From positions 12,152,001 through 12,216,000 of the forward strand of contig OX597842.1 of the NCBI GenBank assembly GCA_951406725.2: 64,000 nt of DNA, written 5' to 3'. Positions 13,960 to 35,615 of this stretch are shown here, piece after piece; the first letter of the stretch is position 1, and the number at the start of each line of letters is the position of its first letter. The notes beneath the pieces were generated by a model. It saw only the letters and a program-made list of their open reading frames with translations, made no database searches and was not told the origin of the DNA. The position numbers were made by a program, and so were the translations under genes. Origin of the DNA: Octopus vulgaris. Lineage: Eukaryota.

Positions 13960-14045
13960 GTAGTTCCCGGGTTGATTCGGGGTTAACCACAGTAAGTAAG
14001 GTACTCAATACATAGCAGAGTAAAATTAATTTATTATATAGAAGG

Positions 14046-14096
14046 AGCTTCTACAGGACTAGTACTGTTTCATTCAAGAGAAATCTTCAGGAAGCT
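14046..14096 (-). ncRNA. Type I hammerhead ribozyme (family A)
   Basis: Reverse complement reads AGCTTC-CTGAAGA-TTTCTCTTGAAT-GAAA-CAG-TACTAGTC-CTG-TA-GAAGCT. Confidence 0.85.
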
Positions 14097-14493
14097 ATTT
14101 AACAAGAATTGTATTAGCATTTATACATTTAGAGGAGTGGTGGTGGGGGACTTTTTGGGGGTAGGCATAGCGCAAAATATCATACTTGGGGAGTGGTCAA
14201 GGTAATAAAAAAATAAAATAAAAAAATAAAAAAAAAAAATAAAAAAATAAAAAGATAAAATAAAAGAATAAAAATAAAAATAAAAAATATAAAAAATATA
14301 AAAAATATAAAAAATATAAAAAATATAAAAAATATAAAAATATATATAAAAAAATATATAAAAAAATATATATATAAAATATATATATAAAAAAAGGGGG
14401 GATAGAGTTATAGGTAAATAAGGAGATTCTCACTTATACCTATACACACATGTATACGTATCTACACACACATACGCACATACACATATATCT

Positions 14494-14544
<51 letters not shown>

Positions 14545-15003
14545 CCTACACATACACACATACATACATACAAATATACATATACATATATATATATACA
14601 ATCCAATACAGGCCCATTCCCTAATTTTAATTTTATTATCTTCATTTATTACTTTTGTTATCTTTGATCGCTAAGGCTAAGAATCCTGGCAATAGCTGCT
14701 TGTCCGTTTGTCTGTCTACTAGAAGGCAAGTACTCATTCCCGCACGCACACTCATTAGCACGTACATTCACCCATTCGTACACTCATACACATACACGTA
14801 CGCACGCGTTATATTCATACATACAAACAACTACATACGTTCACGTATATACACATACGTACTCGTACCTACAGATTCGTGTCTACACTTTAGGAGGCTA
14901 GTCTATACATATACACCAATAAATATACATATATATATATATACATATATACCCGCACATACATACACACACACACATATATACTCCTACATACAGATAC
15001 ATA

Positions 15004-15051
<48 letters not shown>

Positions 15052-15251
15052 TATATATATATACATACATACACATACATACACATACACACATACACAC
15101 ACATACATACACATATATATACATACCCAAACATATATACACACACATATATATACATACACACATACACACATACATACGTATACATACATACATACAT
15201 CTATACATCCATACTTACATGCATTTATACGCATACACACACCCATCTATA

Positions 15252-15288
<37 letters not shown>

Positions 15289-15567
15289 TCACACATACAT
15301 ATACAAGTCTACGCACACACATACATACATACACGTATACGCATACACGCACATACACATATACATGCGTACCCATACACGTGCACACACGCACGCGCAT
15401 CCATATAAATACACACACACACATATATATATACACGTGTGCAAGCATACATACATACTCATACGCGCACACATACTTACAAATACATATATGCACACAC
15501 TTACACACATATATATACATACACATATACATGCATACATACATATATGCATACATACACACACACA

Positions 15568-15629
<62 letters not shown>

Positions 15630-15937
15630 TACATACATAGACACATATACACATACATACACATACACATACGTACACACACATATACACATATATATAT
15701 ATACATATATATATATATACACATATACGCATACATATATACACATATACATACATATACATACACACACACATACATATATACATATACACTGATACAC
15801 ATACCCATACATACACATGCATATACTTATATTACTACATACTCACATTTATAGACATATATACATATACACACATACATATATACATGTACATACACAT
15901 ACGCATGCATATATATATATATACATACATATATATA

Positions 15938-15968
<31 letters not shown>

Positions 15969-16251
15969 ACATACACACACACACACACATACATATACAC
16001 ATATACATGTATACATACGCAAAAATGATACGCATATATACACATACACACACACAGACAGATGCATATACATACATATATATATATATATAAACTACAT
16101 ATCTATATAAATACATACATAATACACATATACACACACATATATATACATTCATGCATATACATATACAAGTATACATACACAAACATACACACACACG
16201 CGCACACATACATATACACACACACATATACAAATACATACATACACACAT

Positions 16252-16289
<38 letters not shown>

Positions 16290-16415
16290 ATACATACATG
16301 TACACATATACATATGTATATATATATCAACAAGGGGGGGTAAAGTTAATTAGTTATTAATCAATTTCATCAAGTGTTCAGTATGTAAAGGGACCATTAT
16401 TATTTTGAGTAAACA

Positions 16416-17487
16416 ATGTTAGACCCCAGGACCACGGATGGGTTCCGGAAAAATCTTCACACCTTCTTTAAAAACTTAGGCCTTAGGATTACCCTAGAAT
16501 CCAACTTAACTAAGGCTAACTTCCTAGATGTCACCCTCGACTTAAAAACCTCACTTTATTACCCGTACCACAAACCAAATGAATCCCTTAGATATATAGA
16601 TATCAATTCCAACCACCCCAGAAATATATTAGATAACCTAGTAAAAAGTGTCTCAATTAGAATCTCTAGCCTGTCCGCCACGGAAGATATCTTTAAGGCC
16701 GCAGCCCCCTATTACAACGAGGCCCTGGCCCGTAGTGGTTTTAAAGATAAGATTACCTACACTAGTATAGCCCCACGCCAACCCAGGAAAAATAGACGAA
16801 GACACATTAGCTGGTATAACCCCCCTTCAACCGTGAGGTCGCTACACCTGTAGCTAAGATCTTTTTCACTCTCCTACAGAAACACTTCCCCACCCAACAT
16901 AAGTACTACACTATCCTAAATAAGAACACTATTAGACTCTCCTACTCTACCACGCCCAACCTAGCCAGGAACTTAGCCAACAACAATGTGAAAAAACTTA
17001 ACATATCTACTTTCTCCGGGGCCCATCCAACGTCCGATAGCAATTGCAACTGCCATGATAAAACCACCTGCCCCTCAACAACAACTGCCTACAGAGGGAC
17101 CTAGTATATAAATGCGAGGTAAGATCAGGCCTTGACGATAAAAGTAAATCCTACATTGGAATGACGTCAAACAGCTTTAAGACCCGCTGGTATGCACATA
17201 CACACTCGTTCCGGCGACAGGATAAATCCAACCAAACTACCCTCGCCGCCCACATCTGGTACCTTAAAAGGAACTCAATCCCCTTCAAGACCAAGTGGAA
17301 ACTACTACAGAAGGCGCGCTCGTACACAGGAGGACATACCTGCTGTGACCTATGCATATCAGAGAGCCTAGAGATCTTGTTCGCCAAAGGCCCTCTCCTT
17401 AACAAATTTTCAGAACACTCCCCAAACTGTATGCATAAGAAGTATGCGAACTACAAGAACTATAGACCTACCCGGCAACCTGATTGA
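16416..17487 (+). pseudogene. PLE ORF C-terminal half: RT thumb, linker and GIY-YIG endonuclease, with two single-base frameshifts
   Basis: NFLDVTLDL..PYHKPN..SNHP..WYNPP / FNREV..KHFP..NTIRLSYS..CNCHDKTTCP / LNNNCL..LVYKCEV..YIGMT..FKTR..H..SF..CDLCISE..LLNK..CMH. Frameshifts fall in C-runs at ~16820-16825 and ~17071-17074. Confidence 0.92.
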
Positions 17488-18158
17488 TGACAACCCCCCT
17501 ACAACCCCCCAACCCCACTGTTCCCCTAGCACCCCCGATTACCTTTTCTCCTAAGACCTTTCACATATTATATGTGCACGCATATTATATGTGCACGCTT
17601 GTATATGTGTATCGTATGTATGTATGTATATATGTATAGAAATGCATGGGTACAGTAGGAATATACGCATGTATTATGTGTGTGTGTGTGTATGTATGCA
17701 TGTAAAAAAATATATATGTATATATGTTTGCATGTATATATATATATATATATGTGTATATATATGTGTATATATATGTATATATATATGTATGTGCTTG
17801 TATGTGTGTGTGTGTGTATATGTGTATATGTGTTTGTATGTATATGTGTATATATGTATATGCATATGTATGTGTAAATGTATGTGCTTATGTATGTGTA
17901 TGTATGTATAAAATATTATATAATTAGGGCTTAGGAAAATAAAATAAATTACTTTGCCACATACTAAACTTTCTAGAAATAGCAGCCAATAAAGTTTTTT
18001 AGCCTCTTCCACTACTTAGAGAATTTTTTTCCCTCTAACATTGTTTACTCAAAATAATAATGGTCCCTTTACATACTGAACACTTGATGAAATTGATTAA
18101 TAACTAATTAACTTTACCCCCCTTGTTGATATATATATACATATGTATATGTGTACAT

Positions 18159-18206
<48 letters not shown>

Positions 18207-18491
18207 ATGTGTGTATGTATGTATTTGTATATGTGTGTGTGTATATGTATGTGTGCGCGTGTGTGTGTATGTTTGTGTATGTATACTTGTATATGTATAT
18301 GCATGAATGTATATATATGTGTGTGTATATGTGTATTATGTATGTATTTATATAGATATGTAGTTTATATATATATATATATATGTATGTATATGCATCT
18401 GTCTGTGTGTGTGTATGTGTATATATGCGTATCATTTTTGCGTATGTATACATGTATATGTGTATATGTATGTGTGTGTGTGTGTGTATGT

Positions 18492-18522
<31 letters not shown>

Positions 18523-18832
18523 TATATATATGTATGTATATATATATATATATGCATGCGTATGTGTATGTACATGTATATATGTATGTGTGTATATGTA
18601 TATATGTCTATAAATGTGAGTATGTAGTAATATAAGTATATGCATGTGTATGTATGGGTATGTGTATCAGTGTATATGTATATATGTATGTGTGTGTGTA
18701 TGTATATGTATGTATATGTGTATATATGTATGCGTATATGTGTATATATATATATATGTATATATATATATGTGTATATGTGTGTGTACGTATGTGTATG
18801 TGTATGTATGTGTATATGTGTCTATGTATGTA

Positions 18833-18901
<69 letters not shown>

Positions 18902-19169
18902 ATGTATGCATATATGTATGTATGCATGTATATGTGTATGTATATATATGTGTGTAAGTGTGTGCATATATGTATTTGTAAGTATGTGTGCGCGTATGAG
19001 TATGTATGTATGCTTGCACACGTGTATATATATATGTGTGTGTGTGTATTTATATGGATGCGCGTGCGTGTGTGCACGTGTATGGGTACGCATGTATATG
19101 TGTATGTGCGTGTATGCGTATACGTGTATGTATGTATGTGTGTGCGTAGACTTGTATATGTATGTGTGA

Positions 19170-19208
<39 letters not shown>

Positions 19209-19408
19209 TATAGATGGGTGTGTGTATGCGTATAAATGCATGTAAGTATGGATGTATAGATGTATGTATGTATGTATACGTATGTATGTGTGTATGTGTG
19301 TATGTATATATATGTGTGTGTATATATGTTTGGGTATGTATATATATGTGTATGTATGTGTGTGTATGTGTGTATGTGTATGTATGTGTATGTATGTATA
19401 TATATATA

Positions 19409-19460
<52 letters not shown>

Positions 19461-19919
19461 TATGTATCTGTATGTAGGAGTATATATGTGTGTGTGTGTA
19501 TGTATGTGCGGGTATATATGTATATATATATATATGTATATTTATTGGTGTATATGTATAGACTAGCCTCCTAAAGTGTAGACACGAATCTGTAGGTACG
19601 AGTACGTATGTGTATATACGTGAACGTATGTAGTTGTTTGTATGTATGAATATAACGCGTGCGTACGTGTATGTGTATGAGTGTACGAATGGGTGAATGT
19701 ACGTGCTAATGAGTGTGCGTGCGGGAATGAGTACTTGCCTTCTAGTAGACAGACAAACGGACAAGCAGCTATTGCCAGGATTCTTAGCCTTAGCGATCAA
19801 AGATAACAAAAGTAATAAATGAAGATAATAAAATTAAAATTAGGGAATGGGCCTGTATTGGATTGTATATATATATATGTATATGTATATTTGTATGTAT
19901 GTATGTGTGTATGTGTAGG

Positions 19920-19970
<51 letters not shown>

Positions 19971-20353
19971 AGATATATGTGTATGTGCGTATGTGTGTGT
20001 AGATACGTATACATGTGTGTATAGGTATAAGTGAGAATCTCCTTATTTACCTATAACTCTTTCCCCCCTTTTTTTATATATATATTTTATATATATATTT
20101 TTTTATATATTTTTTTATATATATTTTTTATATTTTTTATATTTTTTATATTTTTTATATTTTTTATATTTTTTATTTTTATTTTTATTCTTTTATTTTA
20201 TCTTTTTATTTTTTTTTTTTTATTTTTTTATTTTATTTTTTTATTACCTTGACCACTCCCCCAAGTATGATATTTTGCGCTATGCCTACCCCCAAAAAGT
20301 CCCCCACCACCACTCCTCTAAATGTATAAATGCTAATACAATTCTTGTTAAAT

Positions 20354-20404
20354 AGCTTCCTGAAGATTTCTCTTGAATGAAACAGTACTAGTCCTGTAGA
20401 AGCT
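20354..20404 (+). ncRNA. Type I hammerhead ribozyme (family A) at the element 3' end
   Basis: Stem I AGCTTC/GAAGCT, core CTGAAGA, stem II TTC-TCTT-GAA, GAAA, stem III CAG/CTG, GUA triplet (predicted cut after 20398). Confidence 0.85.
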
Positions 20405-20694
20405 CCTTCTATATAATAAATAAATATATATATATATATATATATTCTGTTATTCTGTTATTCTTTTACTTGTTTCAGTCATTTGATTGCGGTCATGCTG
20501 GAGTACCGCCTTTAGTCGTACGAATCGACCCAATGATCGGGTGCTGGTAATGGTGATCCGGTTCACCATTAGCATCTCATTAGCTCTTTGTTCTTCTTTG
20601 GTGCACATTGCTACTGGAGCGGCCATGCTAACAACTGACCATCGCTTGACAACATACATATATACATACATACATACATACATACATACATACT

Positions 20695-20725
<31 letters not shown>

Positions 20726-20728
<3 letters not shown>

Positions 20729-20924
20729 GGTCCCGGGTTGATTCGGGGTTAACCACAGTAAGTAAGGTACTCAATACATAGCAGAGTAAAATTAATTTAT
20801 TATATAGAAGGAGCTTCTACAGGACTAGTACTGTTTCATTCAAGAGAAATCTTCAGGAAGCTTCCTGAAGATTTCTCTTGAATGAAACAGTACTAGTCCT
20901 GTAGAAGCTCCTTCTATATAATAA

Positions 20925-20926
<2 letters not shown>
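20726..20926. mobile_element. Mini foldback of family A: 132-bp perfect palindrome of two HHRs plus a 69-nt extension
   Basis: Palindrome 20795-20926 centred on AAG|CTT. HHRs at 20812-20862 (-) and 20859-20909 (+). (TA)n on both sides. Confidence 0.9.
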
Positions 20927-34612: not shown

Positions 34613-35088
34613 CACATACATGAATACGCCCAAAAACAAATGAAAATTATTGGTTATTAATTAAATTTATTAATGGCTTCTGAGATCGATAATTATAAAG
34701 ATAAGAAAAAATAGAAAATAGAAAAAAAAAAATTAATAATACAAATAGTGAAATAGAAAAAAAAATATATATATATAAGATAAAAAAAACCCAATAAAAA
34801 TCCAAAGATCGAAAATTCAATTCGGTGTCAAAAGAGATTTGATCTCTGACCCTCCATGTTTACATAAACCACTTAGCTATATTGGTTTATTAGCGGTTTA
34901 CAGGGCCGTGATAGTTATGGCACGAGTTGTTGTTGCCATTATTGTCATCGTCATCGTCGTCGTCGTCGTCGTCGTCATCTTGGAAGATGTTGTTGGTGTT
35001 GTTGTTGTGGGTGAAGATGAAGGTGGCATTGGTGGTGCGGCGGTGACGCTTTTCCGTTTTAAAAGATTTCAGAATATTACGTTTTTGC

Positions 35089-35110
35089 AAATAATAATAA
35101 TAACGATAAC

Positions 35111-35175
<65 letters not shown>

Positions 35176-35228
35176 TGATAATAATAATAATGATAATAGT
35201 AATAATAATAGTAATAATAATAATAATA

Positions 35229-35274
<46 letters not shown>

Positions 35275-35327
35275 TGATAATAATAATAATGATAATAGTA
35301 ATAATAATAGTAATAATAATAATAATA

Positions 35328-35375
<48 letters not shown>

Positions 35376-35441
35376 GTAATAATGATAATGATAATAATAA
35401 TAATAGTAATAATAATAATGATAATAACAATAATAATAATA

Positions 35442-35478
<37 letters not shown>

Positions 35479-35566
35479 TAATAATAATAATAACAACAAC
35501 AATAATAATAATGATAACAATAATAATAGTAATAATAATAATAACAATAATAATAATAACAACAAC

Positions 35567-35615
<49 letters not shown>

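Follow-up and report, generated by a model that had tools for sequence, protein, structure and literature searches.

Hammerhead motifs occur in the pseudo-long terminal repeats (pLTRs) of Penelope-like elements (PLEs) (PMC4209133), and endonuclease-positive (EN+) PLEs have been described with head-to-head inverted arms, a one-sided tail, palindromes at junctions, and TATA and initiator (Inr)-like motifs in the pLTR (PMC3846280). In the Hydra clade of PLEs, the GIY-YIG endonuclease is C-terminal, and the protein features CxCX5C, DKT, RW(K/R), and CxxC plus CxH motifs and no CCHH, together with a canonical hammerhead and a (TA)n target (PMC8557442). For PAc, a Poseidon element of the anole, in vitro work demonstrated that both target strands are cut and extended, with two internal reverse transcriptase (RT) starts bracketing the tail; an AC-rich stem-loop and a predicted dimer were also reported, and hammerhead cleavage was dispensable (PMC11167929). 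Further related literature includes PMC13282606 and PMC2377424. The present analysis concerns a 64,000-nt stretch of Octopus vulgaris DNA (contig OX597842.1, positions 12,152,001 to 12,216,000 of the forward strand; hereafter, the window), in which a large and a 201-bp foldback of one PLE family lie side by side.

The reading favored here, and considered probable, is that both insertions belong to a single Hydra-clade family inserting in (TA)n, whose protein nicks each strand of the target and reverse-transcribes a single sense RNA twice. The family provides a large, young, and clean record of PLE insertion, a mechanism that reviews still call unresolved.

The element and its two foldbacks

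The genome holding the window comprises 2.8 Gb in 227 contigs, and its microsatellite load and SINEs look octopus-like. Element positions are numbered such that −1 is window position 20421, the last base of the short end, and the tail extends from +1 to +69 or +73; on the same numbering, the predicted hammerhead cut separates −24 from −23, and stem I begins at −68 (window 20354). L-numbers (L009, L082, and so on) denote genome loci retrieved for inspection, and C-numbers denote contigs of this genome. In window coordinates, the features of the two insertions are as follows:

13960..14028, minus strand: large-insertion tail of 69 nt, or 73 nt if the shared ATAT is counted; corresponds in full copies to the 5ʹ leader between the hammerhead and the open reading frame (ORF)
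13966-13981: predicted small hairpin with an AC-rich loop at the end of the tail (fold prediction)
14029..16423, minus strand: left arm, antisense to the final 2.4 kb of the 3ʹ untranslated region (UTR) plus the pLTR; putative complementary DNA (cDNA) from the long start site
14046..14096, minus strand: type I hammerhead motif of the left arm
16423..17487, plus strand: 5ʹ-truncated ORF with the end of the RT and the thumb, the CxCX5C linker, and a GIY-YIG domain at the C terminus
17488..20421, plus strand: microsatellite-rich 3ʹ UTR plus pLTR
18034-20421, plus strand: right arm, within the 3ʹ UTR and pLTR, ending at the short start site
20325..20330, plus strand: TATAAA sequence, 29 nt 5ʹ of the putative start
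20354, plus strand: putative capped transcription start, the first base of hammerhead stem I (−68)
20354..20404, plus strand: type I hammerhead motif of the right arm, predicted cut at 20398/20399
20726..20794, minus strand: tail of the 201-bp insertion
20795..20926: 132-bp perfect palindrome, both arms of which reach the putative start and share AGCT (20859-20862); one of the 303 exact turns of this kind counted genome-wide
20859-20909, plus strand, and 20812-20862, minus strand: hammerhead motifs of the 201-bp copy

The large insertion had been described beforehand, from its sequence alone, as having inverted arms of about 2.4 kb. The arms are indeed reverse complements over 2379 aligned columns, with 6 mismatches, one of which (14028) lies just beyond the arm; the 10 small indels are confined to homopolymers or simple repeats. 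The 201-bp copy (20726-20926), separated from the large element by just 305 bp, consists of the 132-bp palindrome and a 69-nt extension with a single mismatch to 13960-14028, as had also been noted; the length of this extension can be given as 69 to 73 nt because the element itself continues with ATAT. Likewise, the sense arm ends at 20421, 23 nt past a predicted cut that follows A20398. Two other parts of the preliminary description needed adjustment. Both ends abut (TA)n in general, but the right end of the large element has an extra AAAT before its (TA)n, a variant present at other copies. The fragment placed at 16416 to 17487 does contain RT and GIY-YIG domains, but homology begins at 16423, where the ORF piece meets the left arm through 1 shared base, and the piece carries two frameshifts when compared with an intact copy, each from a C run (near 16821 and near 17071) that is one base short. 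Across the family, copies are flanked by TA or (TA)n, in keeping with the TA targeting originally proposed.

By motifs compared by eye, the window elements are a Hydra-clade Penelope-like family. Full copies contain, in order, a hammerhead, the tail, a short leader, an ORF of approximately 713 aa, a 3ʹ UTR rich in microsatellites, and another hammerhead, which gives a partial tandem of pLTR, ORF, and pLTR with hammerhead and tail. The 69-nt extension precedes the ORF as a 5ʹ leader in these copies and is therefore the known PLE tail. In L082, a 713-aa open frame carries YRDDG and LVY..YIG, placing RT and GIY-YIG in a single ORF with the endonuclease C-terminal to the RT. The linker reads CNCHDKTTC, DKT replaces DKG (PSDKTKN), and the N-terminal RWK motif appears as RIRWRSFFF, a conservative K-to-R change relative to RMRWKAFFF in Hydra-1_Obim. 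The endonuclease lacks CCHH: its GIY and YIG halves have a single Cys between them, and CDLC..E..N..CMH was read by eye. These ORF motifs agree by eye with the published Hydra alignment (PMC8557442), and a canonical hammerhead, at motif level, and a (TA)n target are both present, as in that clade. A Pfam search of the element protein matched neither RT nor GIY-YIG. The label "Naiad-type," given at first, does not fit an element with RT first, GIY-YIG last, DKT, and a hammerhead; Naiads combine an N-terminal GIY-YIG with DKA and CCHH and lack a canonical hammerhead, and this element departs from them in each of these traits.

Family copies were counted genome-wide by exact sequence patterns, with reversed patterns as controls. 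The shared ends are not due to chance, since 2319 tailed junctions and 1355 untailed ends on TA were found, compared with 0 in the controls; 303 perfect AGCT turns and 88 tail-to-ORF junctions were also counted. The family is young, given that the best 150 protein matches are 86-100% identical. A frameshifted, non-autonomous subfamily was considered, as the first frameshift occurs in many copies, and was set aside as less likely than read error because both breaks are C-run losses. As a separate observation, many ORFs that appear broken may be assembly errors of the kind seen at 16821 and 17071.

Paired ends and two probable start sites

Ends were surveyed on C1 between 2.2 and 97.3 Mb, seeded with the first 100 tailed and 61 untailed exact matches, which formed 114 clusters; the DNA was then retrieved, and 206 arms were mapped using a looser anchor. 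The seed patterns favor 0 ends and tailed ends, although pairs of two tailed or two tailless arms could still be caught. Arms were mapped by k-mers, and mis-mapping inside microsatellites makes the lengths of long arms approximate. Among the 206 arms, 3ʹ ends fell at +73 in 104 (2 of them internal), at +67 to +70 in 4, at 0 in 71, within −8 to +4 in 26, and at +17 in 1. Tabulating the end-points of other copies had been proposed as a check on the original idea, and it gave two preferred ends rather than random ones.

Copying from two positions is supported by how these ends combine. Of 204 terminal ends, 164 form 82 head-to-head pairs, and every pair (82/82) joins one tailed to one untailed arm. 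The tailed ends lie at +73 in 78 of the 82 pairs, which bears out a fixed start at that position, whereas the short site is a cluster, with 57 of 82 untailed ends at 0 and the remainder within −8 to +4. The proposal that one arm comes from each position and that both strands are primed from RNA is thus upheld, and each arm can hold sequence of its own. In the large window element, the untailed arm has 1.6 kb absent from the tailed arm, and the tailed arm has the tail; because each arm holds sequence absent from the other, two cDNAs are indicated rather than one folding back. Moreover, arms are matched in class (48 short-short, 32 long-long, and 2 mixed pairs; Fisher p 2e-20), while long arms vary widely in length. 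The two arms carry the same subfamily base at −37 in 73 of the 74 pairs that were scored, with 6 left unscored. The extension had been assigned to the antisense arm. Instead, the tail is found on the ORF-sense arm in some copies and on the inverted arm in others. Of the long pairs, 32 were scored (two exceeded the length that allowed it): the tailed arm was the longer one in 15, the shorter one in 11, and similar in length to its partner in 6. At the target, the element matches ATAT (4 nt) at the tail end and AT (2 nt) at the short site. The tail-end start adjoins the predicted hairpin with the AC-rich loop, just 3ʹ of it (z −2.3).

On this basis, a protein dimer would prime one target strand at the tail end, using the ATAT match, and the other at the short site, using the AT match. 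The two cDNAs would then extend toward the 5ʹ end of the RNA across an uncut hammerhead, and their 3ʹ ends would be joined head to head via 0-6 nt of complementarity or a short filler, with repair filling in the rest. Priming of both strands on the same pLTR copy of one RNA is the simplest reading of the matched arms. If the primed pLTR came first on a capped transcript, both cDNAs would reach the cap and run off within 68 nt, and their joining through AGCT would yield the 201-bp class. If 3ʹ UTR lay upstream of the primed pLTR (the 3ʹ pLTR, tandem read-through, or a circular RNA), kilobase arms would result, as in the 6.5-kb copy.

The stop at −68, the hammerhead, and rival explanations

According to the preliminary description, only the fold-back point varies among copies. 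The turn is in fact strongly non-random: 110 of 206 arms stop within −68 to −25 (42 of these on −68 itself), no arm stops at −69 or −70, and 14 do so within −71 to −164, although the −68 peak is inflated because AGCT is shared by both arms of perfect palindromes. Three listed short-read joints in run X1 likewise fall on −68. An extra G frequently precedes this base. Among genome-wide TA-flanked, palindrome-free −68 junctions, G stands before −68 in 23/31 and 8/12 (31/43), or in 27/39 once 3 partner-templated cases and 1 local duplicate are removed. Among retrieved loci, it is present at 42 of 63 non-natural, non-palindromic junctions; after 21 rows were removed by hand (5 diverged natural, 3 palindrome variants, 6 stem-I joins, and 7 partner-templated), it is present at 29/42, compared with 12/60 at other breakpoints (p 1e-6). 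The G comes neither from the element, which has T there, nor from the target, which has T or A, and an extra G is the copied-cap signature at full-length L1 5ʹ junctions (PMC11702581).

Together, the pile-up of stops, the extra G, and TATAAA 29 nt upstream point to a capped transcription start at −68. The 201-bp form is likely what remains when copying runs off the capped start of the RNA rather than the ribozyme cut. A 3ʹ splice site at −67, where TAG occurs, was rejected as the source of the stop: the base before the extra G is not constant, so there is no shared upstream exon. Separately, in L156 (C5:10362900-10363300) leader position ~+105 is joined via an extra G to −68; with L151, described below, it hints at short RNAs ending near +100.

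Several points weigh against the reading of two cDNAs copied from one capped RNA. Perfect palindromes place both arms at −68, and the assembly shows read-type errors in hairpins, which makes turns within about 10 nt of AGCT uncertain. From L284 to L313, there is recurrent loss of one or two G just 3ʹ of the cut site, mainly in short foldbacks; these losses are absent from the listed short-read indels and are likely long-read hairpin errors. Under the pairing rule used, 40 ends were left unpaired, some of them with a partner that is diverged or tail-only. The tail is on both arms in L088:7740-7990, outside the C1 sample, and a second tail-tail pair (C21:13162981/13163125), known from its coordinates only, lies within C21:13162981-13163153. 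Concordance at −37 could reflect timing or gene conversion, target-site duplications are unreadable within (TA)n, and the anole enzyme gave neither a strand difference in start site nor homology between RNA and target (PMC11167929), in contrast to the strict pairing and ATAT match observed here. Furthermore, 18 of 26 tail-to-ORF heads reach more than 100 nt upstream (4 start within −65 to −76, and 4 are diverged and unmapped). Such long heads extend 5ʹ of −68, so a simple linear capped RNA is insufficient, and tandem read-through or cut-and-ligated circles are needed. None of the listed sequencing runs with the element is recorded as RNA, which is not evidence either way.

It is unlikely that hammerhead cleavage instead fixes the element boundary and the template's 5ʹ end, as the term "ribozyme-delimited" had implied. 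The four hammerhead motifs of the window are identical 51-nt strings made up of a 6-bp stem I, CUGAAGA, a weak stem II, GAAA, and a 4-bp stem III with an 8-nt partly palindromic loop. An intact type I ribozyme near each outer end, as first claimed, is accordingly present in its core and stems at motif level, but it folds no better than shuffles (z −0.18), and among the 150 of 155 Rfam matches listed, none is to a hammerhead family; the best sub-threshold match is a microRNA model. For an RNA starting at −68, the predicted minimum-energy fold is an alternative hairpin. The element's 3ʹ ends lie 23 and 92-96 nt beyond the predicted cut, arms read through the uncut motif, and the main stop is 45 nt upstream of the cut.

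Some ends do fall at the cut site. Of roughly 2300 tailed arms, 38 deviate there, and 30 of these were inspected: in 13 matches, at 12 loci, the arm starts at the cut, another 8 join stem I to stem I there, and the remaining 9 show point changes. A control window placed directly upstream yielded 19 matches, about 6-7 of them true ends by eye, which caps any enrichment at 2-3 fold, with TA and stem-I complementarity at the cut as confounders; G-loss variants next to the cut spoiled the downstream control. Cleavage may occur in vivo, and the strongest individual pointer to it is a 125-bp tandem at L151:4018-4329 (C15:44664000-44664330), in which leader position ~+102 is joined exactly to the first post-cut base. 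Heads longer than one unit and the arrays described below also fit circles formed by cutting and ligation, a proposal of Cervera and de la Pena (PMC4209133). Nevertheless, the cut bounds only about 1% of copies, which argues that the hammerhead is not the boundary of the element. Two further loci involve this motif: in L283 (C18:49340858), a tailed arm starting at the cut is joined to unrelated, very GC-rich sequence, possibly a template jump onto another RNA, and L296 (C1:151333728) contains a ~60-bp tandem of the hammerhead 3ʹ half and short end with a small internal inversion.

Formation of the inverted arm by a single cDNA that folds back, or by self-priming on an antisense template, is quite unlikely and, for long copies, largely refuted. 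The 303 perfect palindromes are centered on self-complementary AGCT, arms are nearly identical, and self-priming is the published interpretation of head-to-head palindromes (PMC3846280). However, snap-back of one cDNA demands a longer tailed arm, and the tailed arm is shorter in the window and in the 11 long pairs counted above. In L036, L123, L287, L303, and L322, both arms extend to −68, each with its own extra G and with filler between them, and the extra G indicates a capped sense template. It is very unlikely that the 201-bp form is a self-propagating non-autonomous family, akin to a miniature inverted-repeat transposable element (MITE) or a short interspersed nuclear element (SINE), rather than a recurrent abortive product. 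One turn is shared by 303 exact copies, but it occurs with both subfamily bases (A/A in L030, L135, and L140; T/T in L009, L194, and L226) within a continuum of other turns, single-arm copies stop at the same base, and the form has no TATA box and has asymmetric ends.

An assembly or library artefact is highly improbable, for although hairpin-linked G losses (about 170-190 tailed arms) and C-run frameshifts suggest long-read consensus errors and none of the short-read contigs spans the complete 201 bp or all 209 bases, hundreds of loci are flanked by unique DNA on each side and share their asymmetric ends, and short-read contigs from four runs in four studies cross the AGCT center, with other turns and filler visible. 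Near-identical sequence occurs in sequencing runs under four organism labels. Sequence comparison confirms both window palindromes as real insertions.

Mini-foldbacks also sit in TA runs within or directly beside other family copies (L081, L127, L150, and L183). Elsewhere in the window, an abundant SINE-like repeat of ~211 nt occupies 700-1441 (tandem, with a 177-bp period) and 14 further places up to 57414, and a long (AAT)n-rich block lies at about 34950-35600.

Tandem arrays and comparison with known systems

Most tail-to-ORF junctions (60/88) fall in three tandem arrays:

L146, C2:64628300-64632200: 277-bp unit, 14 exact hammerhead motifs
L147, C5:37481400-37489300: 333-bp unit, 20 exact hammerhead motifs
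L149, C8:91475100-91483400: 271-bp unit, 24 exact hammerhead motifs

The array unit spans from 5ʹ of the TATA box through the hammerhead and tail to +160 to +178, taking in the ORF start, and each of the three arrays is one foldback in (TA)n, ending at +73 on one side and at 0 or −1 on the other. Each unit junction recurs within its own array (14, 24, and 31 times), and none was seen in other retrieved loci, including all 28 non-array junction places. A circular template may lie behind these arrays. L146, L147, and L149 are tandem in the sense that defines non-LTR (long terminal repeat) retrozymes, at least two tandem units with a hammerhead in each, while the window copies, being head-to-head, are outside that definition.

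A more specific version of the favored reading is plausible but tentative. It takes the family as a natural footprint of the complete insertion cycle and envisages an RT dimer acting asymmetrically on one capped sense RNA, with one start per strand without exception; a promoter start at the first base of the hammerhead, making mini-foldbacks strong-stop-like run-offs; and pLTR circles copied by rolling circle from both strands to give newborn retrozyme arrays that keep the two ends of their parent. If this version were true, the question of sense versus antisense template would be settled, and retrozymes would be born from, and inserted by, a named PLE. The record of this family yields three testable predictions: a single RNA on which each strand has its own start, a cap at the first base of the hammerhead, and insertion of arrays by the parent protein. 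In addition, the hundreds of perfect hairpins of roughly 200 bp found here could pass for MITEs or microRNA precursors.

The element is a new Hydra-clade family whose insertion layout is itself already known (PMC3846280, PMC8557442, PMC11167929). The "new retro-system" proposed at first does not stand in that form, as the same tail and two-start behavior has been published (PMC11167929, PMC3846280). The strict one-of-each rule, the cap signature, and foldback-shaped arrays were unstated in the literature searched, the scope of which left out most subscription papers; specifically, strict pairing of one site per strand and cap run-off were not found in the portions of the PAc study available (PMC11167929). 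In PAc, the starts lie inside the ORF (PMC11167929), whereas here they are in the 5ʹ leader and both starts have short matches to the (TA)n target.

Among relatives, Naiad PLEs are similar in their (TA)n target, inverted copies, and tail and are present in octopuses, but they differ in their N-terminal endonuclease, DKA, CCHH, and lack of a canonical hammerhead (PMC8557442). Hydra-1_Obim of Octopus bimaculoides has the same clade motifs; its hammerhead sequence and protein differ by eye, which makes the present element a separate family. Penelope-13_HM, also of the Hydra clade, is likewise listed with an inverted 5ʹ-truncated copy (PMC8557442). Compared with the usual unit of less than 3 kb, the unit here is about 4.8-5.3 kb because of its roughly 2.9-kb microsatellite 3ʹ UTR, and the tail is 69-73 nt rather than the usual 30-40 (PMC8557442). 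With non-LTR retrozymes, which are proposed PLE derivatives, the arrays share ~300-bp tandem units with a type I hammerhead (PMC7229834; bioRxiv 10.64898/2026.07.22.740005); they are distinguished by about 99% identity to an autonomous parent and by the two insertion ends of that parent. Finally, while PMC3846280 reads the palindromes of EN+ PLEs as self-priming on an antisense template, the counts in this family favor two cDNAs from a capped sense RNA.

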